From assembly GCF_003334335.1 (NCBI RefSeq), contig NZ_QOWQ01000047.1: a stretch of DNA of 31,056 nt. One strand, 5' to 3'. The translations under genes were made by a program, and so were the position numbers. Source of the stretch: Escherichia coli. GTDB taxonomy: Bacteria; Pseudomonadota; Gammaproteobacteria; Enterobacterales; Enterobacteriaceae. This document shows, in pieces, positions 464-11,983 of the stretch; position 1 is the stretch's first letter, and each line of letters opens with the position of its first letter. Below the pieces are notes generated by a model, which saw only the letters and a program-made list of their open reading frames with translations, had not been told where the DNA came from and did no database searches.

Positions 464-907
464 CTAACTTAGCAGTAGGTCCGCTGTGAGCGAGGTGCAG
501 AAGTTCGCAATTGTTCTCGCAACCAAGGTAGCTAAAAAACACGGCAGGCAAATGTCTACATGTAAGATACACTTGCTATTATCAAGAATTTTAGTCCTGA
601 AGCATTTTAACTTTCTTCTCATGTTTTTATATTCGCCATTTATCCATTCAGGTTCTTCCCGAATAGCTGATCGCATACAGTGTGTTAGGATATCATTCCA
701 GAAAGCTGCAATCGCATCTGCAAACTCTATAAACTGTGTTTCTGTAACCTCTAGTTGCTCATGACGTAGACTAAATCTGACGGTGTCACCACGATGTAGC
801 ATCAGCATTGCGGTGAGCCGCCGGGCATGGTTTTTGTCATTTGTTTTATGGATAGTTTTCTGCATCAGGTGCCGTTCGGCTCTGGGTATTGGTACTATGA
901 TCGGCAT
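464..907 (-). pseudogene. Transposase-like fragment: first ~45 aa resemble the HTH N-terminus of IS630-family transposases, then diverges; likely truncated or decayed
   Basis: ORF-track translation MPIIVPIPRAERHLMQKTIHKTNDKNHARRLTAMLMLHRGD... recalled from memory as IS630-family-like; the catalytic DDE part is absent. Not verified by search. Confidence 0.3.
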
Positions 908-2690: not shown

Positions 2691-3221
2691 ATGAAGCTAA
2701 CAGAAGAAAGTCTGAATCTAGTCATTGACATCCTGAATGATTTGATCTGTGAAGGAAAAATGCTGAACGATGTGGAGCGCAGATCTCTGCTCAATGCAGT
2801 TATGGCAATTACAGCGGTAAAAGAACGTTCTGTCGTATCTGTATCATCCCGAAAAGAGCAAAGTAAGAAGGAGAAGAAGGAAAGAGAGATCGATCCTCGT
2901 TTCCCAAATGCTGGTGTGGCATGGAATGAGGCAGACGAGAGTTTATTGCGAGATGTTCTGGAGGATGTACCGGACGATGAAATTGGTAAACACCTTTTCT
3001 GGCTGGCAGAGAAACTAGGGCGAACCCCGTACAGTGTAGCCTGTAAAGTCAGACAAATTAAGAAATTACCTGCAGAATGGAAGGATCAATTTCGTAAAAT
3101 CTCTGACAGGATCCGTAGTTCTGGAATGTCAGTCAGTGAATATCTACAACGCCAGGGACTGTTAAGCCCAGAGTCAGGGGAAGAAAACAATCCTGTCAGT
3201 CATAACAACAATGTAGCTTAA
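2691..3221 (+). CDS. Hypothetical protein (176 aa) with a Lys/Glu-rich central linker and a possible C-terminal HTH-like region; unknown family
   Basis: Clean ATG start at 2691, KEQSKKEKKERE low-complexity segment, stop at 3219-3221 followed by a hairpin; sits in the island cargo slot. No family recognised. Confidence 0.45.
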   Translation: MKLTEESLNLVIDILNDLICEGKMLNDVERRSLLNAVMAITAVKERSVVSVSSRKEQSKKEKKEREIDPRFPNAGVAWNEADESLLRDVLEDVPDDEIGKHLFWLAEKLGRTPYSVACKVRQIKKLPAEWKDQFRKISDRIRSSGMSVSEYLQRQGLLSPESGEENNPVSHNNNVA

Positions 3222-3234
3222 TCCTGAAGAAGAT

Positions 3235-3270
3235 GAACAGTTTATACTCTTTAAACTGTTCCCTTAATTT
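3235..3270 (+). terminator. Putative intrinsic terminator after the 176-aa ORF
   Basis: Perfect 10-bp inverted repeat GAACAGTTTA / TAAACTGTTC (3235-3244 and 3252-3261) with a 7-nt loop, followed by a T-rich tract. The stem is AT-rich, so strength is uncertain. Confidence 0.35.
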
Positions 3271-3761
3271 TAGAAAAACAGTTTGTGTAAGTGCATGCTC
3301 CAACATTCTGAAGGCGTTATTTCTTACAATACATCATAATCATTGGCAGATCCTCATCTGAATCAAAACACCACAACCAATCATCACACTTTTTCTGAAA
3401 AGAGCCTTATGATGAAGATAATCACCTTACGCTGAGAAAAAACACCAGGGCCAGTTAATCACCTTATCAATCTCGCCGTTACAAAATCATCCATAAGCCA
3501 TTTAACAGTGTTATCGCAAACTCACAGTAAATCGCATCAGGTTACCTCAATCGGATTTGAGTTAATTCACTGGGCTTTACGTAAAGATACTTTTCTCAAG
3601 CTAACGTCGAAACTCGAAATCTAAGGAAAGGTTAAACGTAACATCAGTAAAATCGAATAGCAGATTGATTGCTTAAACAGAAAGGTTTTACAGCAGCATT
3701 AAACTGATTTAGTTAACGTAAAGATTTACTAAACTGGATGTGTATAGCAATGCTTAACGAA

Positions 3762-3880
3762 AACACTTGTAGAAGTGTTTATGAAAATACGTGTATGTCT
3801 GGTAAAACACTTAGTAGAAAATACGTGTATAACACTTACTGAAATGCTTAGTAAAAATACTTAGTAAAATACGTGTATAT
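3762..3880. repeat. Cluster of direct repeats (three exact copies of AAAATACGTGTAT) plus a palindrome, inside a 1.16-kb AT-rich non-coding region
   Basis: Exact 13-mer at 3784-3796, 3818-3830 and 3866-3878 (spacing 34 and 48 bp); copies 2 and 3 share the extended unit CTTAGTA(G)AAAATACGTGTAT; palindrome AACACTT-gtag-AAGTGTT at 3762-3779. No ORF of 60 aa or more anywhere in 3222-4384. Confidence 0.6.
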
Positions 3881-4384
3881 AGTATCATACCGACATTCTC
3901 AACATCTTCAGACTTCCATACATACTGGGTGTTAATTTTTCACTTTTACAGCCAGCATGGAGTTTTCTGTCCTAAAAACAGAGCAGATTTACTCTGGAGT
4001 TATTTTCCTGTTCACGTATTCAGTACAGCAGAAATCCCGTGATAACGAGACAGTAAACCATCGTAATCAGCGTCTGTAACTCCATCGCTTTACCCCAGAA
4101 AAGTTAAGCCATATAATGTGAGGGATATAAGTCGTCGTATCCGGTAAGTACAGATAACCACAACATAAGCTCATTCAGTAAATTTTATCTCTGAACAAAC
4201 GACTATGGCATGCTCATTTATACTATTCATAAGAAAGTGTGATTATCTGTAAGCATTAACCATCAAATCATATAACCATACTAAACTGGCGGATCATCAG
4301 CACCATTAGCAGGTAACTTATTGAAATTTTATTATGTGTTTTTTGTTGATAATTAATATGCAATATGAATTTGATATTTTAGAA

Positions 4385-5608
4385 TCATGAACACCATTTA
4401 AAATTACCATCATTAATATCATATAAAAATATATTTTTACTAAAACATGAATTGTATATATTTATTAGCTCAGGAAAATTATCAGGGTTCACCTTCAAAT
4501 TAACCTGAATGTTATGCTTAATTTCACCCAGTAGTTCTTCATGTGTGGATTTTATTATCCCATTATTATAATCGATAAATGCACACATGTTTTTTATGAA
4601 TTCAAAACCTTTTCCTGTATACAGTTTAATGAATGCCACCAGAGCAAACATTTCAAGATGTAGCCATAATGCTACGTTAGTTTTTTGCAAAGTATAAAAA
4701 ATTGAATTCGCCACTTTTTTACTTATTGCTCTTTTATACTGTGATCGAGCAAGATTCAGTAGCGGAAGCTCTCGTTCAATAAATGAATGTGAAAAGACTG
4801 GATAAATTGATGTCGGAAACCTTTCAGGCCTTATGATATTTTCTATTTCCACCATAAATCTATCCATAGAAAGAAAGTCACTTTCTTTTTTTATTCTGGT
4901 ATAGAGACCGCCTTTATTCCTTTCTGAGGTTTGTTTTCGTGCTATCCCCCCTAACAATTTCTCTAATTGTTTATTTATCTTCGTATAATTAAATACAACC
5001 ATTCTTCTTATCATCCTCGGAAGGATAATAATATCAGTGCTTGAATCACTTGAACGGCAATTATTATTTATCCATGCAACTTCAAGTTGCAGTATCGGAA
5101 CATTAACTTTTCTGGGGTGAATATCACTCTGATATCGTTTTTTGTATGCGTTTTCATTAAGATATTCTCTGCTGTAGAGAAACTTATAGCAATATAATCT
5201 GATAATATCTTTTATGTAAAATTTAAATAGTTCACCTGTAACAGATATATGTTTTCTGCTCAGTAACTCCTGTGTATTAAGCCATTCCCGTGACCGAAGC
5301 ACACCCTTGTGAAAACTTTTTCTTACTTGCTTTGAGGCACGGCATTGATGTAATATTTTTGCGTCCTCAATAATTCTCTTTCCCGTTTTATTTTTTGCAG
5401 CATCTCTTACTCCATAAAATATCTCCCGGTCCAGACTTTTGTCATATTTACTGATTATACGACAAATATTCCTGACCCGACGATTCTCTTTATTTCGCTT
5501 CCATAGCTTATAATGATCATCGCATAACCTTAAGGCATTTGCCTCATCAAATTCTGAAACAGGATTACTGCATTTTTTATTCCGACAAATACCTTTGTTT
5601 TTAGCCAT
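4385..5608 (-). CDS. Orphan hypothetical protein (407 aa), strongly AT-rich, N-terminal Cys/His cluster (possible zinc-binding or HNH-like finger); candidate cargo or defence gene
   Basis: Long uninterrupted ORF with ATG at 5606-5608 and a GGAAG-like Shine-Dalgarno upstream. Composition is visibly far more AT-rich than flanking DNA. N-terminus reads C-x4-C-x15-C-DD-H. No family recognised. Confidence 0.6.
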   Translation of the reverse strand: MAKNKGICRNKKCSNPVSEFDEANALRLCDDHYKLWKRNKENRRVRNICRIISKYDKSLDREIFYGVRDAAKNKTGKRIIEDAKILHQCRASKQVRKSFHKGVLRSREWLNTQELLSRKHISVTGELFKFYIKDIIRLYCYKFLYSREYLNENAYKKRYQSDIHPRKVNVPILQLEVAWINNNCRSSDSSTDIIILPRMIRRMVVFNYTKINKQLEKLLGGIARKQTSERNKGGLYTRIKKESDFLSMDRFMVEIENIIRPERFPTSIYPVFSHSFIERELPLLNLARSQYKRAISKKVANSIFYTLQKTNVALWLHLEMFALVAFIKLYTGKGFEFIKNMCAFIDYNNGIIKSTHEELLGEIKHNIQVNLKVNPDNFPELINIYNSCFSKNIFLYDINDGNFKWCS

Positions 5609-5661
5609 ACTCTTCTTCCCGTCAATGGAAAAATTTTCACACCCATATTACCTGAATGATA

Positions 5662-5684
5662 AACCGGATTAGTGTGATCCGGTT
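5662..5684. promoter_or_regulatory. Perfect palindrome AACCGGAT-N7-ATCCGGTT in the divergent intergenic region between the 407-aa gene and the GTPase gene; candidate operator
   Basis: Arms at 5662-5669 and 5677-5684 are exact reverse complements. It lies in the 100-bp gap between two divergently oriented start codons (5608 and 5709). Function is inferred. Confidence 0.3.
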
Positions 5685-5708
5685 CAGTGAAATCAACAGG
5701 ATACCGGT

Positions 5709-7214
5709 ATGCCATTCAGCAATTCTTCCCTCTCCGCGCAAGTGAAATCATATCTGACGTTTCTTCCTGAAGAAATACGCCAGAAAATCCTTGAACATCT
5801 CCACGGTGTTATTCATTACGAGCCCGTGATTGGCATTATGGGTAAATCCGGCACCGGCAAGAGCAGCCTGTGTAATGCCATTTTTCAGTCCCGTATCTGC
5901 GCCACGCATCCCCTGAACGGCTGCACCCGCCAGGCTCATCGTCTTACCCTGCAGCTCGGTGAACGCAGAATGACGCTGGTCGATCTGCCCGGCATTGGTG
6001 AAACACCGCAGCATGATCAGGAATACCGAGCGCTTTATCGTCAGTTACTGCCGGAACTGGATCTGATTATCTGGATCCTGCGGAGTGATGAACGTGCGTA
6101 TGCTGCCGATATTGCCATGCATCAGTTTTTACTGAATGAGGGCGCAGATCCCTCGCGCTTTCTGTTTGTTCTCAGCCATGCCGATCGCATGTTTCCTGCT
6201 GAAGAATGGAATGCCACAGAAAAATGCCCGTCCCGTCACCAGGAACTCTCACTGGCGACAGTAACAGCCCGGGTGGCCACCCTGTTCCCTTCATCATTTC
6301 CGGTACTCCCCGTAGCCGCGCCTGCAGGCTGGAACCTTCCAGCGCTGGTGTCACTGATGATCCACGCGCTGCCACCACAGGCAACCAGCGCAGTTTATTC
6401 ACATATCCGGGGGGAAAACCACTCTGAACAGGCCCGGAAACACGCACAACTGACTTTTGGTGAAACCATCGGGAAAAGTTTTGACGACGCCGTTGCCCGT
6501 TTCAGTTTTCCGCCCTGGATGTTACAGCTTCTGCGCAAAACCCGGGACCGCATTATCCACCTGCTGTTCACTGTGGCATCCTTCTCCACCTCCGCCGGTA
6601 ACTGGGCTGTCAAAAACGGCTGGTGCCAGACCATGACGGAAGATGGTCAGGCGCTGGTAATGCTGAAAAATGGCACGATTGGTATTACCGGCCTGATGCA
6701 GGGATGCCCGAATGGCGTACAGACGCTCCTGGGCAGCCGTATCAGTATTAACGGTAACCTGATCCCCACATCACAAATGTGTAATCAGCAGACGGGATTC
6801 AGGGCTGTTGAGGTGGAAGTCGGACAGGCGCCGGAAATGGTCAAAAAAGCCGTTCACTCCATAGCAGAGCGTGATGTGTCCGTTTTACAGGCATTTGGTG
6901 TACGAATGGAATTCACCCGCGGTGATATGCTGAAGGTCTGTCCGAAATTTGTCACATCACTTGCCGGTTTTTCCCCGAAACAGACACCCGCCATTAATAA
7001 AGATTCCGTCCTGCAGGCTGCCCGGCAGGCATACGCCCGGGAATATGACGAGGAAACAACAGAAACCGCTGATTTTGGCTCTTACGAAGTAAAAGGCAAT
7101 AAGGTTGAGTTTGAAGTGTTCAATCCTGAAGACCGTGCGTACGACAAAGTGACCGTCACGGTTGGTGCTGACGGTAATGCCACCGGTGCCAGCGTTGAAT
7201 TTATCGGAAAATAG
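5709..7214 (+). CDS. YeeP/YfjP/YkfA-family P-loop GTPase with an extra ~210-aa C-terminal extension
   Basis: Walker A motif GKSGTGKSS near residue 45 and a DLPG motif; the N-terminal ~290 aa resemble K-12 CP4 GTPases (about 287 aa, from memory). The ORF runs on to 501 aa. Confidence 0.7.
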
Positions 7215-7219
7215 CTGGT

Positions 7220-7453
7220 ATGTCGGACTGTCACCCTGTTTTATTGCCCGAAGGCCCTTTCTCACGCGAACAGGCGATGGCTGTCACAACAGCTTACCGC
7301 AATGTGCTTATTGAAGATGATCAGGGAACGCATTTCCGGCTGGTTATCCGCAATGCTGAAGGGCAGCTACGCTGGCGGTGCTGGAATTTTGAACCTGATG
7401 CCGGAAAACAGCTTAATGCGGGGCTCGCCAGTGAGGGAATTCTCAGGCAATAA
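7220..7453 (+). CDS. DUF905-like small protein (YkfF-like) of the CP4 island backbone
   Basis: 77-aa ORF with ...[19 protein letters not shown]...HFRLV...WNFEPDAG..., recalled as the DUF905 family. From memory only. Confidence 0.5.
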
Positions 7454-7551
7454 ACGTCTTCATTTCATCCATCAGGCCACGTCTTCTCCGGGAGACGTGG
7501 CTTTTTCATTTATTACACCAGTAAATCTTAACCACCAATAAGGAGCAAATC

Positions 7552-8370
7552 ATGCGATTAGCAAGTCGTTTTGGTTATGCGAACCAGATACGCCGTGACC
7601 GCCCCTTAACTCGCGAAGAACTGATGCAGGTCGTCCCCAGCGTATTCGGGGAAGATAAGCACACATCCAGAAGCGAGAACTATACCTGGATCCCCACCAT
7701 CACAGTGCTGGAAAGCCTGCAGCGGGAAGGTTTTCAGCCATTCTTTGCCTGCCAGACCCGCGTACGTGACCCGGGCCGCCGGGGGTATACCAAACACATG
7801 CTGCGTCTGCGCCGTGACGGGGAGATAAACGGACAACATGTCCCTGAAATCATCCTGCTGAACTCCCATGACGGTACCTCCAGCTACCAGATGCTGCCGG
7901 GTTACTTCAGGTTCGTCTGCCAGAACGGCTGCGTCTGTGGTCAGTCTCTGGGGGAAGTGCGTGTTCCGCACCGGGGAAATGTGGTGGACAGAGTCATTGA
8001 AGGGGCTTACGAGGTGGTGGGCGTGTTTGACCGGATTGAGGAAAAGCGTGATGCCATGCAGTCGCTGATTCTGCCGCCACCGGCACGCCAGGCGCTGGCA
8101 CAGGCGGCACTGACTTACCGTTATGGTGACGAACATCAGCCCGTCACCACCGCCGACATTCTGACGCCACGACGCCGGGAGGATTACGGTAAGGACCTGT
8201 GGAGTGCTTATCAGACCATCCAGGAAAATATGCTGAAAGGCGGGATTTCCGGTCGCAGCGCTAAAGGAAAACGTATCCACACCCGTGCCATTCACAGCAT
8301 CGACACGGACATTAAGCTCAATCGCGCATTGTGGGTGATGGCAGAAACGCTGCTGGAGAGCATGCGCTGA
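7552..8370 (+). CDS. DUF932-family protein (YafZ/YfjQ-like)
   Basis: 272-aa ORF; length and position after the GTPase match CP4 island DUF932 genes. The antisense 275-aa ORF (7606-8433) was rejected. Confidence 0.6.
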   Translation: MRLASRFGYANQIRRDRPLTREELMQVVPSVFGEDKHTSRSENYTWIPTITVLESLQREGFQPFFACQTRVRDPGRRGYTKHMLRLRRDGEINGQHVPEIILLNSHDGTSSYQMLPGYFRFVCQNGCVCGQSLGEVRVPHRGNVVDRVIEGAYEVVGVFDRIEEKRDAMQSLILPPPARQALAQAALTYRYGDEHQPVTTADILTPRRREDYGKDLWSAYQTIQENMLKGGISGRSAKGKRIHTRAIHSIDTDIKLNRALWVMAETLLESMR

Positions 8371-8461
8371 TGCTGTTTCCCTGAAAGTGCAGCCCTGACT
8401 CACGTCTGTACCAGTCCCCAGGCATTCTTCCATTCATTTACTTTTTATAAGGAATCATCTC

Positions 8462-8947
8462 ATGACAACCTTTTCGCATAGCTCCACCACACCTTCTGTT
8501 TCCGTAACCACTGCATCAGGGAATAACCAGTCTCAACTGGTTGCCACCATAGTCCCTGATGAACAGCGCATCAGCTTCTGGCCGCAGCACTTTGGCCTCA
8601 TTCCACAGTGGGTGACCCTGGAGCCCCGTGTCTTCGGCTGGATGGACCGTCTGTGTGAAGACTACTGCGGTGGTATCTGGAATCTGTACACCCTGAATAA
8701 CGGCGGCGCATTTATGGCGCCCGAACCGGATGAAGATGATGACGAAACATGGGTACTGTTCAATGCCATGAACAGTAACCGCGCTGAAATGAGCCCGGAA
8801 GCCGCCGGCATTGCAGCCTGTCTGATGACGTACAGCCATCATGCCTGTCGTATGGAGTGTTATGCCATGACGGTCCATTATTACCGGCTGCGGGATTATG
8901 CCCTGCAGCATCCGGAATGCAGCGCCATTATGCGCATCATTGACTGA
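8462..8947 (+). CDS. Antirestriction protein, KlcA/ArdB-like (YfjX/YafX family)
   Basis: 161-aa ORF with an acidic stretch EPDEDDDE and the conserved position immediately upstream of the RadC-like gene. Confidence 0.65.
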   Translation: MTTFSHSSTTPSVSVTTASGNNQSQLVATIVPDEQRISFWPQHFGLIPQWVTLEPRVFGWMDRLCEDYCGGIWNLYTLNNGGAFMAPEPDEDDDETWVLFNAMNSNRAEMSPEAAGIAACLMTYSHHACRMECYAMTVHYYRLRDYALQHPECSAIMRIID

Positions 8948-8961
8948 AAGGGGCCGGAACA

Positions 8962-9438
8962 ATGCAACAGATTTCCTTTCTGCCCGGAGAAATGACGCCC
9001 GGTGAGCGCAGCCTCATTCAGCGGGCCCTGAAAACCCTGGACCGCCATCTTTATGAACCCGGCGTGGCCTTCACCTCCACGCATGCGGCACGGGAGTGGC
9101 TGATTCTGAACATGGCGGGACTGGAGCGGGAAGAGTTCCGGGTGCTGTATCTGAACAACCAGAATCAGCTGATTGCCGGTGAAACCCTTTTCACCGGCAC
9201 CATCAACCGCACGGAAGTCCATCCCCGGGAAGTGATTAAACGCGCCCTGTACCACAATGCCGCTGCCGTGGTACTGGCGCACAATCACCCGTCCGGTGAA
9301 GTCACACCCAGTAAGGCAGACCGGCTTATCACCGAACGTCTGGTACAGGCACTGGGCCTGGTGGATATCCGGGTGCCGGACCATCTGATAGTCGGTGGCA
9401 GCCAGGTTTTCTCCTTTGCCGAACATGGTCTGCTTTAA
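8962..9438 (+). CDS. RadC-like JAB/MPN-domain protein (YeeS/YkfG/YfjY family)
   Basis: 158-aa ORF containing the JAMM-type motif HNHPSG (...VVLAHNHPSGEVTPSKAD...). Confidence 0.75.
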   Translation: MQQISFLPGEMTPGERSLIQRALKTLDRHLYEPGVAFTSTHAAREWLILNMAGLEREEFRVLYLNNQNQLIAGETLFTGTINRTEVHPREVIKRALYHNAAAVVLAHNHPSGEVTPSKADRLITERLVQALGLVDIRVPDHLIVGGSQVFSFAEHGLL

Positions 9439-9500
9439 CCCGTCACAACCACATCACACCTGTTTTCACTTTTATCTTCTGTCTTCAGAGGTATCACACT

Positions 9501-9722
9501 ATGAAAATCATCACCCGTGGTGAAGCCATGCGTATTCACCGTCAGCATCCAGCATCCCGTCTTTTTCCGTTCTGTACCGGTAAATACCGCTGGCACGGTA
9601 GCACGGATACGTATACCGGCCGTGAAGTACAGGATATTCCCGGTGTGCTGGCCGTGTTTGCTGAACGCCGTAAGGACAGTTTTGGTCCGTATGTCCGGCT
9701 GATGAGCGTCACCCTGAACTGA
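9501..9722 (+). CDS. DUF987-family small protein (YeeT/YkfH-like)
   Basis: 73-aa ORF in the conserved position between the RadC-like gene and the CbeA-like antitoxin. Confidence 0.55.
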   Translation: MKIITRGEAMRIHRQHPASRLFPFCTGKYRWHGSTDTYTGREVQDIPGVLAVFAERRKDSFGPYVRLMSVTLN

Positions 9723-9801
9723 GTCTGGAAGGGCATTCAGAAGAGCAGAATTATCGCCACCACCGGACCATTCTTAACCAATTTTCTGTGAGGATTTTAT
9801 C

Positions 9802-10170
9802 GTGTCAGACACATTCTCCGGGACAACGCATCCCGATGACAATCACGACCGCCCCTGGTGGGGACTGCCCTGCACCGTGACGCCCTGTTTTGGTTCCCGT
9901 CTGGTACAGGAAGGCAACCGGTTGCATTACCTTGCCGACCGCGCCGGTATCAGAGGGCGGTTCAGCGACGCGGATTCGTACCACCTGGACCAGGCCTTTC
10001 CGCTGCTGATGAAACAACTGGAACTCATGCTCACCAGCGGTGAACTGAATCCCCGCCATCAGCATACCGTCACGCTGTATGCAAAAGGGCTGACCTGCGC
10101 AGCCGACACCCTCGGCAGTTGTGGCTACGTTTATATGGCTGTTTATCCGACGCCCGAAACGAAAAAGTAA
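9802..10170 (+). CDS. Type IV antitoxin of the CbeA/YeeU/YafW/YfjZ family
   Basis: 122-aa ORF directly upstream of a CbtA-like toxin gene; sequence pattern recalled as YeeU-like. Confidence 0.7.
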   Translation: MSDTFSGTTHPDDNHDRPWWGLPCTVTPCFGSRLVQEGNRLHYLADRAGIRGRFSDADSYHLDQAFPLLMKQLELMLTSGELNPRHQHTVTLYAKGLTCAADTLGSCGYVYMAVYPTPETKK

Positions 10171-10259
10171 CTCTCCAGAATAACCTTCTGCTCCGGCCTG
10201 GTGCTTTCACCACGCCACTTTTCCATTTTTCATCTCTGCATATCAGGAAAATCTTCAGT

Positions 10260-10637
10260 ATGAAAACATTACCTGTATTACCCGGGCTGGCGGCCAGTTC
10301 ACGCCCGTCTCCGGTTGAAATCTGGCAGACACTGCTCACCCGACTGCTGGATCAGCACTACGGCCTTACGCTGAATGACACACCATTCGCTGATGAACGT
10401 GTGATTGAGCAGCATATTGAGGCAGGCATTTCACTGTGTGATGCGGTGAACTTTCTCGTTGAAAAATACGCGCTGGTACGTACCGACCAGCCGGGATTCA
10501 GCGCCTGTACCCGTTCTCAGTTAATAAACAGTATTGATATCCTCCGGGCACGCCGGGCAACCGGCCTGATGACACGCGACAACTACAGAACGGTAAATAA
10601 CATTACCCTGGGTAAACATCCGGGGGCGAAACAATGA
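10260..10637 (+). CDS. Type IV toxin of the CbtA/YeeV/YkfI/YpjF family
   Basis: The track ORF starts at 10119, but the start consistent with the family is the ATG at 10260 (MKTLPVLPGLAAS...), giving about 125 aa and leaving a 90-bp gap after the antitoxin stop. Confidence 0.7.
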   Translation: MKTLPVLPGLAASSRPSPVEIWQTLLTRLLDQHYGLTLNDTPFADERVIEQHIEAGISLCDAVNFLVEKYALVRTDQPGFSACTRSQLINSIDILRARRATGLMTRDNYRTVNNITLGKHPGAKQ

Positions 10638-11056
10638 AACAGGCCCTGACGCTGGAAGCCGACAGCATTAATGCGCAGGCGCTGAACATGGGGCGCATTG
10701 TCGTTGACGTCGATGGTATTGAGCTCGCTGAACTGATTAACAAAGTCGCTGAAAACGGTTATTCACTCCGCGTGGTGGATGAACGTGACGCTACCGAAAC
10801 ACCGGCGACTTCTGCCAGCCCTCATCAGTTGCCGGAAGACAATACAGTGATACAGAGCGTGATGCCATTAACCACTGAAACAGCGCTGGATATCCTCATT
10901 GCGTGGCTGCAGGACAATATCGACTGCGAATCGGGAATTATCTTTGACAACGATGAGGATAAAACGGATTCGGCAGCACTGTTGCCCTGTATCGAACAGG
11001 CCCGGGAGGATGTCCGGACTCTTCGTCATCTGCAGCTTCTGCACCAGAACCGGTAA
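10634..11056 (+). CDS. YeeW-like protein (unknown function) downstream of the toxin
   Basis: 140-aa ORF whose ATG overlaps the toxin stop in an ATGA junction at 10634-10637; acidic composition. Confidence 0.45.
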   Translation: MKQALTLEADSINAQALNMGRIVVDVDGIELAELINKVAENGYSLRVVDERDATETPATSASPHQLPEDNTVIQSVMPLTTETALDILIAWLQDNIDCESGIIFDNDEDKTDSAALLPCIEQAREDVRTLRHLQLLHQNR

Positions 11057-11140
11057 ATATCACTCACCATACTTCATTCCACTGACGTCAGCCTGAACAG
11101 GGCTGGCGTTTTCGTTTATAAACCAAAAGGGAAACCGATC

Positions 11141-11983
11141 ATGTCAGACATCACAATCTCCCGTCCGGAAGTGGTCACCGGGCATACGGACGTTATCTGC
11201 TCAATCAGTATCCGCCACATTCTGGCTGTACGAAAGAGTACACTGCTGCAAATCGACACACTTATCCGGCAACTGGCTGAAATATCAGCAATGACAGAAA
11301 GTATTGGCGGTAAAGCCGCCCCGGACTGGGCCATGAAACAGGATTTTCGCTGCGGCTGCTGGCTGATGGAGAAACCGGAAACCGCAATGAAAGCCATCAC
11401 ACGCAATCTCGATCGCGAAATCTGGCGTGACCTGATGCAACGTTCAGGGATGCTTTCCTTAATGGATGCACAGGCCCGTGATACATGGTACCGGTCACTG
11501 GAGCACGATAATTTTCCGGAAATCAGTGAAGCGAACATTCTGAGCACATTTGAACAACTACACCAGAATAAGGATGAGGTGTTTGAGCGAGGGGTGATCA
11601 ACGTCTTCAGGGGACTGAACTGGAATTACAAAACCAATTGCCCCTGCAAATTTGGCAGTAAAATTATCGTCAACAACCTAGTGAGGTGGGACCGATGGGG
11701 GTTTCATCTTATCACCGGGCAACAGACTGACCGACTCGTCGACCTGGAAAGAATGCTACATCTGTTCAGCGGCAAACCGATCCCCGACAACCGGGAAAAC
11801 ATCACTATTCGTCTGGATGGTCACATCCAGTCCGTTCAGGGTAAAGAGCGCAATGAAGACGAGATGTTCATCATTAAATACTTTAAGAAGGGATCTGCAC
11901 ACATCACTTTCAAAAGGCTGGAACTGATTGACAGAATTAACGATATAATAGCCAGGTACTTTCCTTCTGTGCTCTCAGCCTGA
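11141..11983 (+). CDS. DUF4942-like protein, last gene of the island before the attachment-site repeat
   Basis: 280-aa ORF; the family name is recalled from annotations of similar islands and is not verified. The antisense ORF 11116-11601 was rejected. Confidence 0.5.
   Translation: MSDITISRPEVVTGHTDVICSISIRHILAVRKSTLLQIDTLIRQLAEISAMTESIGGKAAPDWAMKQDFRCGCWLMEKPETAMKAITRNLDREIWRDLMQRSGMLSLMDAQARDTWYRSLEHDNFPEISEANILSTFEQLHQNKDEVFERGVINVFRGLNWNYKTNCPCKFGSKIIVNNLVRWDRWGFHLITGQQTDRLVDLERMLHLFSGKPIPDNRENITIRLDGHIQSVQGKERNEDEMFIIKYFKKGSAHITFKRLELIDRINDIIARYFPSVLSA

Follow-up and report, generated by a model that had tools for sequence, protein, structure and literature searches.

An undescribed protein superfamily at the control region of the YeeP-like GTPase operon in CP4-57-type islands of Enterobacterales

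The 407-aa gene is intact and under selection

The DNA analysed here, called the window throughout, is a stretch of 31,056 nucleotides from Escherichia coli (contig NZ_QOWQ01000047.1 of RefSeq assembly GCF_003334335.1), and the subject of this study is a 407-amino-acid (aa) gene on its minus strand (4385..5608; 1224 bp, ATG start; WP_001107214.1), whose product carries the RefSeq label 'hypothetical protein'. We find that the gene encodes a member of a protein superfamily that occupies one position on CP4-57-type islands, divergent from the gene of a YeeP-like GTPase, in E. coli and in other genera. A preliminary description, made from the sequence of the window, had placed the gene in a CP4-57-like island with flanking YfjJ-like and YeeP-like GTPase genes, and had noted a long, uninterrupted and AT-rich open reading frame (ORF) rich in lysine, isoleucine, asparagine and tyrosine. 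All of this is borne out. The guanine-plus-cytosine (GC) profile across the window reveals a sharp AT-rich block over 3500-5500 with a GC content of 0.31-0.35, against 0.52-0.57 over the island backbone at 6000-11500, and the gene itself has a GC content of 0.325 (0.272 at third codon positions, GC3), compared with 0.539 (GC3 0.559) for the adjacent GTPase gene and 52-55% for its neighbours overall. Lys, Ile, Asn and Tyr together make up 33% of the residues. The chance of 407 open codons at the gene's own base composition is 1.6e-16, and when the AT-rich block around the gene (2.4 kb) was shuffled 1000 times, the longest open frame had 162 codons (mean 84).

The gene is present in 976 of 5426 complete E. 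coli genomes (18%; 1069 places), mostly at 95-100% identity and with a coverage of at least 80% in 968 of the 976, and uropathogenic strain 536 is among the carriers. Region 3200-5750 of the window is 100% identical in several complete E. coli genomes. The E. coli alleles, all of 1224 bp, show a ratio of non-synonymous to synonymous substitution rates (dN/dS) of 0.24-0.33, the neighbouring GTPase gene one of 0.12-0.44, and the N-terminal finger described below is under the strongest constraint (omega 0.02 vs 0.26-0.54 elsewhere in the gene). Because the alleles are uniform in length, dN/dS is low and the finger is the most constrained part, the ORF is a functional, selected protein-coding gene. 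That it is a decaying or functionless hitch-hiker is very improbable: it has no annotation or known domain and its surroundings are AT-rich and largely non-coding, but it is intact at an identical length in all alleles, its dN/dS is similar to that of the GTPase gene, and it is kept across genera.

The protein belongs to a superfamily with long and short forms

The preliminary description called the gene an orphan, which its frequency in E. coli and its relatives in other genera contradict. Outside E. coli the family is very small: a full-sensitivity phmmer search returned 25 matches among 1.84 billion representative proteins, and a word-indexed search returned 16 clusters related to the 407-aa protein. 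Full-length relatives that are 22-37% identical occur in Citrobacter, Klebsiella and other assemblies, and the best structural match in Foldseek is Q1R2M8, a protein of uropathogenic strain UTI89, with 94% identity. A scan of species-wide genome contigs with a peptide pattern gave one locus, in Atlantibacter, a single hit that is explained by the narrowness of the pattern. The family has no tblastn match in 72,556 plasmid records or in 50,697 phage records, and it is confined to chromosomal islands.

A joint profile search retrieved many short forms of 310-324 aa from E. coli and other Enterobacteriaceae. By sequence comparison, the superfamily is restricted to Enterobacterales and consists of long forms with one or two fingers and of finger-less short forms of 310-324 aa. 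One short-form type, that of the island L008 (strain MRE162), was found at 816 places in 742 complete E. coli genomes (188 genomes at a coverage of at least 80%) and by itself adds up to 14% of these genomes. The superfamily has no Pfam or NCBIfam model and no solved relative, its RefSeq accessions are mentioned in no paper, and broader literature searches on the island backbone yielded nothing on the gene. Membership of an undescribed superfamily makes the gene more interesting than an ordinary hypothetical protein.

The gene holds a fixed position divergent from a YeeP-like GTPase gene

The divergent neighbour of the 407-aa gene is a 501-aa ORF of the YeeP/YfjP-like MMR_HSR1 type at 5709..7214 (+), and a spacer of 100 bp (5609..5708) separates the two start codons. 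This ORF is an in-frame fusion, in which residues 1 to ~284 are the YeeP-like GTPase, usually an MMR_HSR1-type protein of 294 aa, and residues 285-501 are a downstream hypothetical protein, 98% identical to the 225-aa protein encoded at L001:16425-17102. L001, which carries an identical 407-aa gene, shows the normal arrangement, with the gene of the 225-aa protein two genes downstream of the GTPase gene. The gene between these two in the normal arrangement encodes a WYL/helix-turn-helix (HTH) regulator (YafY-like), and its deletion makes the window island a natural regulator knock-out. The operon headed by the YeeP-like GTPase gene runs on through DUF932, antirestriction (ArdB/KlcA-type), RadC and CbeA/CbtA genes.

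A family member divergent from the GTPase gene across a spacer of 93-106 bp was found in 12 of the 15 independent loci examined. Nine of the 12 hold long forms, namely the window, the E. coli islands L017 and L018, L002 of Klebsiella michiganensis, L004 of Citrobacter, and L005, L006, L011/12 and L013; the other three (L008, L020-23 and L024-27) hold short forms. L009, also an E. coli island, has the same divergent arrangement as the window, L017 and L018. The three exceptions are L016, where the family gene lies directly upstream of the GTPase gene in the same direction, after int and two small genes; L007, where the same gene start is truncated by an insertion sequence; and L014/15, where the GTPase gene is missing and the next gene, that of the WYL regulator, is kept. 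The GTPase clade itself is found in 1871 complete E. coli genomes, at 2507 places.

The preliminary description took the gene for variable cargo that may stand alone. The interval does carry cargo in K-12 CP4-57, where yfjJ-yfjP comprises abpBA, yfjM and rnlAB, and AbpAB is defence cargo of that island (PMC10732053). Like RnlAB and AbpAB, the 407-aa gene lies between YfjJ-like and YeeP/YfjP-like GTPase genes; unlike them, it keeps its position, where several genera have homologous alleles, and it has no homology to RnlA/B, AbpA/B or YfjM. The position divergent from the GTPase gene is filled by one superfamily in E. coli, Klebsiella, Citrobacter and others, with constant adjacency to the GTPase operon and a common control region across genera. 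The same position and spacer recur in 12 independent loci, with the caveat that K-12 CP4-57 has no family member or remnant and no gene or promoter remnant upstream of yfjP; K-12 YfjM and YfjH were considered as members and rejected, with hhalign probabilities of 0.1-0.2%. The E. coli carrier islands differ in insertion site and in cargo (the pap operon; PTS/ProQ genes; a restriction enzyme gene with IS100). Because the carrier islands differ in this way and the alternative occupant of the position is a homologue (see below), the gene is a backbone component in a sub-lineage of CP4-57-type integrative islands and not cargo. Its constant linkage to the GTPase gene argues against a stand-alone system.

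This neighbourhood also bears on another possible role, that of an establishment or anti-defence factor that binds nucleic acids or proteins of the host or of a competitor, either on entry of the island into a new cell or on arrival of a phage or plasmid. The gene adjoins, with a common control region, an operon of antirestriction (ArdB/KlcA-type) and RadC-like genes, and its sequence diverges rapidly between lineages. It nevertheless lies in its own unit of opposite direction, the protein has no similarity to known anti-defence or phage proteins, and at ~400 aa it is far larger than typical anti-defence proteins, so that we consider such a role quite unlikely.

Alleles are exchanged as a cassette

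Comparison of the window with L008 delimits an allelic cassette (4008..5634, minus strand) that is swapped between the window island and short-form islands. Identity of 93% resumes at 5634, identity of 76% ends at 4008, and nothing can be aligned between these two points. The upper breakpoint lies just downstream of the -10-like box of the family gene and the lower one near the first terminator-like hairpin after the stop codon, predicted by a consensus scan at 3979..3996 (-; CAGAGTAAATCTGCTCTG followed by a T-run), and the exchanged unit therefore corresponds approximately to the gene's own transcription unit. The GTPases of the two islands are 92.7% identical and their family proteins ~17%; for L011 and L016 the corresponding values are 72% and 20%. 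Across loci, the identities of GTPase and family protein correlate with r=0.50 (Mantel p=0.005), but this correlation is driven by a single E. coli pair, and strict co-divergence with the GTPase was rejected. The results show that the position is fixed while the alleles are shuffled as a cassette among very divergent homologues.

The occupant of this position in L008 is a hypothetical protein of 320 aa without a finger. It aligns with the central region of the 407-aa family with an hhalign probability of 95.3% (E 2e-8), and the two have the motifs W..TQ, LEV, P..IRR.V, G.LY and P.F.L..EY.R in common; by this comparison the alternative occupant is a homologue of the 407-aa protein. The short forms P0107 and P0089 are likewise divergent from the GTPase gene, with spacers of 105-106 bp, and each is paired with a convergent, end-overlapping protein of 269-281 aa. 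Across the short-form islands the partner genes (L008:7272-8126, L020:7942-8751 and L024:7954-8799) encode proteins of 269-284 aa, and their stop codons overlap those of the convergent family genes by 4 bp. The partner protein has a weak C-terminal ribbon-helix-helix (RHH) signature (RepA-regulator / Arc-like / RepB-RCR_reg) and may supply the DNA-binding function that the long forms carry as a finger.

Extreme allelic diversity and cassette exchange fit a conflict gene. The protein could accordingly be an anti-phage defence or abortive-infection effector, acting alone or, more plausibly, in a module with the GTPase, with or without WYL control, in which the alleles would represent specificities. 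The AT-richness would fit a toxic gene that is kept silent. The regulator of this operon is of the WYL type, a type that controls several defence systems. Defence cargo is found elsewhere in these islands, with type I restriction-modification, TIR, McrBC and GmrSD/AAA_15 systems in L002, L005 and L014, and as abpAB and rnlAB in K-12 (PMC10732053). The neighbouring GTPase also matches LeoBC weakly (E 1.3e-7, in the C-terminal 100 residues), and, like Eleos (LeoA/LeoBC), the locus is a GTPase-containing one on an E. coli island; unlike in Eleos, the 407-aa protein matches no component of the system and the GTPase is a 294-aa MMR_HSR1-type protein, not the dynamin-like LeoA. Several findings speak against a defence role: ten family members gave no PADLOC match, and the protein shows neither an effector signature nor a match in fold. 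Known defence hotspots hold unrelated systems, whereas the alleles at this position are homologous, and the gene is not sporadic but a fixed companion of this GTPase clade. In addition, the WYL gene is absent in several islands, the window included. On balance, we regard a defence effector as possible but rather unlikely.

A related proposal, which we hold to be somewhat doubtful, is that the YeeP-like GTPase and the hypervariable family gene, joined by the WYL regulator in islands that have it, make up an unrecognised two-component conflict module at the heart of CP4-57-type islands. Such a module would serve either as an anti-phage defence system of a new kind or as a switch that senses a helper or invader. 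Its swappable alleles, the long finger forms on one side and the short forms with their RHH-like partner on the other, would set specificity, and the novel helical core would be the common effector.

The protein combines an N-terminal finger with a helical core

The N-terminal Cys/His cluster seen in the preliminary description is present as a module C8-x4-C13-x15-C29-x2-H32 (codons 8-32; 5513..5587, minus strand), predicted to bind zinc. Mapping of its ligands shows that C8, C13, R27, C29 and H32 are invariant in 14 N-terminal modules of relatives, which are 32-53% identical to the window module, and that the four Cys/His ligands are arranged as two knuckle-like pairs, C-x(2,4)-C-x15-C-x2-H, in all 14. 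The 'DD' between C29 and H32 is variable (DD, DK, EL, EE, NE, DM, NQ, DR or KK). On this pattern, the module is predicted to be a finger of the zinc-ribbon/treble-clef type. The number of fingers varies from none in the short forms to one in the window protein and two tandem copies in P0050; P0063 and P0067 have a second finger of a different type, C-x2-C...YCS..H.

The isolated module gave no significant profile or PDB match. It resembles the treble-clef/zinc-ribbon CCCH fingers of the ClpX/ClpK N-terminus, of FCS/YacG-like proteins and of phage 'HNH endonuclease' repeats in its C-x(2,4)-C-x15-C-x2-H spacing followed by an aromatic residue and a helix. Matches to the LCDDHY segment of the ClpK N-terminus (E 3) and to PHROG 1271 'HNH endonuclease' (E 0.035-0.7) are weak and non-significant. 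It differs from the named finger families in having no significant match to them, in having no HNH catalytic His/Asn/His and in its variable residues between C29 and H32. The resemblance to a zinc ribbon noted in the preliminary description thus stands, and the suggested HNH-like character does not, since the HNH catalytic residues are not conserved. Some AlphaFold database (AFDB) relatives carry the name 'HNH endonuclease', but none of 15 members has an HNH profile match, the catalytic His/Asn/His is unconserved and in the module just C8, C13, R27, C29 and H32 are invariant. The name 'reverse transcriptase' given in UniRef to P0016 (A0AAX3CP38) was rejected as well, there being no RVT profile match, no YxDD column and no polymerase fold.

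An AlphaFold2 (AF2) model of the 407-aa protein, built on a 15-sequence alignment, has a mean predicted local distance difference test (pLDDT) score of 77.7 and a predicted template modelling score of 0.67. The model shows the N-terminal finger (residues 11-40, pLDDT 84-86), then long basic helices (30-93, pLDDT 52-70) and then a mostly helical core with just two short strands plus a C-terminal hairpin. The window protein has an isoelectric point (pI) of 9.76 and a net charge of +32, of which +28 falls within residues 1-225, and the pI is 9.3-10.0 in 13 of 13 family members tested. W109, Y236, P282 and E319 are invariant across the superfamily, T112, Q113, R118, Y139, E176, P197 and L286 are nearly so, and Y385 is highly conserved among long forms. 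As far as can be read from the alignment, these residues form no recognisable catalytic constellation.

In profile searches the window protein matched nothing in Pfam at E<=10 and 15 members gave nothing usable there, and there was nothing usable for the family in NCBIfam, in PHROGs or, with the single protein, the full profile or a finger-only profile, among PDB sequences. In PADLOC-DB v2.0.0, 0 families matched the window protein and none matched the 10 family members tested; the sole match, to DpdJ (E 0.031), came from a set of 8 further members and the L008 partner protein and is spurious. The family protein shows no signature of a nuclease, NTPase, TIR, Sir2, protease or pore. Foldseek found only uncharacterised Enterobacterales proteins in AFDB50 and no match at E<=0.001 in BFVD, and comparison of the AF2 model gave no match to the folds of relaxases, recombinases or primases. 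The predicted helical core thus matches no solved or characterised fold. The earlier statement that the rest of the protein belongs to no recognised family holds after the Pfam, NCBIfam, PADLOC, PHROGs and PDB searches.

AT-richness is a trait of the long forms

The gene had been described as recently acquired on account of its composition. Long forms, however, have a GC content of 0.28-0.37 in every lineage examined and are not host-restricted in this respect, whereas their GTPase genes have one of 0.45-0.59 and their GTPase or integrase neighbours taken together one of 0.43-0.59. Short forms are intermediate, at 0.43-0.44. The long-form proteins of these lineages are just 20-37% identical to the window protein, and because low GC holds across lineages so divergent, recent acquisition does not explain the AT-richness, which is a family trait of long forms. 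H-NS-family proteins preferentially silence AT-rich DNA. Some islands contain an H-NS-family gene or pseudogene of their own (L022:14480-14914 and L008:2364-2462), which fits xenogeneic silencing.

The control region and the downstream non-coding stretch

The spacer between the divergent start codons is conserved in length and architecture, measuring 93-106 bp in 11 loci from several genera, in long and short forms alike. It presumably contains back-to-back promoters; a consensus promoter scan called no site inside 5609-5708. A GTAATAT box at 5645..5651 (-) is invariant in 11 of 11 aligned loci, short-form loci included, lies 37-43 nt upstream of the ATG and could serve the family gene as its -10 element. 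An 8-bp inverted repeat, AACCGGAT-N7-ATCCGGTT (5662..5684), is found near the -35 position of this gene; its loop is TTGACA in L004 and L005. In the aligned loci 80.7% of its cells are paired, compared with 69.2% in shuffles and 16-43% in slid controls, and 5 of the 8 pairs change on both sides. The covariation is 0.266 vs 0.105, and 0 of 500 shuffles reach the observed score. The inverted repeat is identical between E. coli long-form and short-form loci, and since the family proteins of these loci are only ~17% identical, its sequence does not follow that of the family protein. It may represent either an operator recognised by a different factor, for instance the WYL regulator, or a stem-loop at the 5' end of the GTPase mRNA.

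Downstream of the gene lies an AT-rich non-coding stretch at 3222..4384 (core ~3353-4008) without an ORF of at least 50 aa. It is found at 2528 places in 1863 E. coli genomes, almost 1:1 with the GTPase clade, and also in islands with short-form alleles. Rfam gave nothing credible, either at the gathering threshold over the whole window or at E<=1 over 3200-5760. The stretch contains an interleaved direct-repeat array of the motifs ATACACGTATTTT and ACTAAGTGTTTT (~3753-3881, minus strand; 8 hits vs 0.32 expected from shuffles), which is retained, in varying copy number, in both long-form and short-form islands of E. coli; L017 and other genera lack it. The array could represent iterons, or a centromere-like or regulator-binding array.

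These cis elements raise the possibility of a DNA-processing protein for island transfer or replication, namely an atypical relaxase, an oriT-accessory protein or a replication initiator. Its target site in cis would lie in the spacer or in the non-coding element with the repeats, and the operon from the GTPase gene to CbtA would resemble the 'leading region' of a plasmid. The downstream operon contains antirestriction, RadC and DUF932 genes, all of a kind typically found in regions transferred first into a recipient. The covarying hairpin or inverted repeat in the spacer, the nearby repeat array of E. coli islands and the conserved tyrosines Y139 and Y236 (and Y385 in long forms) of a basic protein are also consistent with such a role. 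Nonetheless, the protein has neither an HUH motif nor any other signature of relaxases or Rep proteins, no histidine is conserved beyond the finger, its model has no fold match to relaxases, recombinases or primases, and the family is absent from all plasmid records searched. The islands already encode YfjJ-like (inovirus Gp2 / REP_ORF2-G2P) and YfjI (DUF3987) proteins, and the gene persists without the repeat array in L017 and in other genera. A role in transfer or replication therefore seems improbable.

A control or sensor protein of the island is tentatively favoured

SaPI Stl, phage cI and the ImmR and SetR proteins of integrative and conjugative elements (ICEs) are master repressors or immunity regulators of integrated elements. 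The family resembles them in several ways: its gene is divergent from the main operon over a short control region, it has a fixed position and highly diverse alleles and is confined to integrated elements, and its long forms combine an N-terminal putative DNA-binding module with a larger helical C-terminal part. An allelic cassette with conserved flanks, together with the loosely coupled identities of family protein and GTPase, gives the gene the likeness of an immunity or specificity locus. A pI of 9.3-10.0, a net charge of +32 and invariant predicted zinc ligands point to nucleic-acid binding; the presence of 0-2 fingers and the pairing of finger-less forms with an RHH-like protein point weakly in the same direction. 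We therefore tentatively favour the reading that the family protein is a nucleic-acid-binding, island-specific control or sensor protein. The finger and the basic helical linker would anchor the protein to DNA (or RNA), and the core residues W109, T112/Q113, E176, Y236, P282 and E319 would serve a common activity or contact a partner, perhaps the GTPase. Through its AT-rich coding sequence the unit would probably stay under H-NS-type silencing, so that it would be expressed only under particular conditions. The protein would thus be a functional counterpart of the divergently transcribed master regulators, or of the immunity proteins, found in phage satellites, prophages and ICEs.

A number of findings weigh against this reading. 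The protein has no homology to any regulator and no detectable HTH, and it differs from Stl, cI, ImmR and SetR in lacking any sequence or fold similarity to them. In most islands the operon already encodes a WYL/HTH regulator. The superfamily conserves the core and not the DNA-binding finger, and the short forms have no DNA-binding module of their own, again unlike these regulators. The sole palindrome of the control region does not co-vary with the family protein, and on the alignment of the loci it is probably not the operator of this protein. With ~400 aa, the protein is larger than would be expected of a simple repressor, CP4-57 of K-12 lacks a member, so that this island type can exist without the family gene, and H-NS silencing is inferred from composition only.

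CP4-57-type islands are the scaffold of many pathogenicity and defence islands of E. coli, here among them pap-bearing islands and islands of uropathogenic strain 536, and an unnamed superfamily occupies one conserved site at the control region of their main operon. This shifts the question from which cargo system is present to what controls or arms the island family. The locus also offers a handle on the long-uncharacterised YeeP/YfjP/YkfA GTPases, through the defined breakpoints of its cassette, its conserved spacer and, in the window, a natural deletion of the WYL gene.

Neighbouring genes and minor observations

The 176-aa ORF at 2691-3221 (+; WP_000778605.1) occurs in 671 genomes; 670 of the copies show an identity of at least 99%, an indication that its spread is recent. 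It gave weak HTH-like PHROG matches. The preliminary description had proposed a co-occurrence check with the 407-aa gene, and a partnership between the two is not supported: the ORF is absent from the carriers L017 and L018 and lies beside a short-form allele in strain ECCRA-119, and it was rejected as an obligate partner. It was also rejected as a relative of the partner protein of the short forms.

In the non-E. coli genera (L002, L004, L005, L006 and L013), the family gene is followed after 300-430 bp by an AlpA-like gene on the same strand, ahead of which lies a conserved block of ~100 nt; the next gene is YfjJ-like. No AlpA remnant was found by tblastn in the gap at 3222-4384 of the window. 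The YfjJ-like gene of L001 has a YfjI-family gene upstream of it. Several short-form islands contain a group II intron reverse transcriptase (RVT_1 + GIIM; L024-L027:93-1364), and it lies immediately beyond the CbeA-antitoxin gene, where CbtA and downstream genes normally follow. At 464-907 (-), the window encodes a 147-aa ORF with the N-terminus MPIIVPIPRAERHLMQKTIHKTNDKNHARRLTAMLMLHRGD..., which resembles a transposase HTH fragment.

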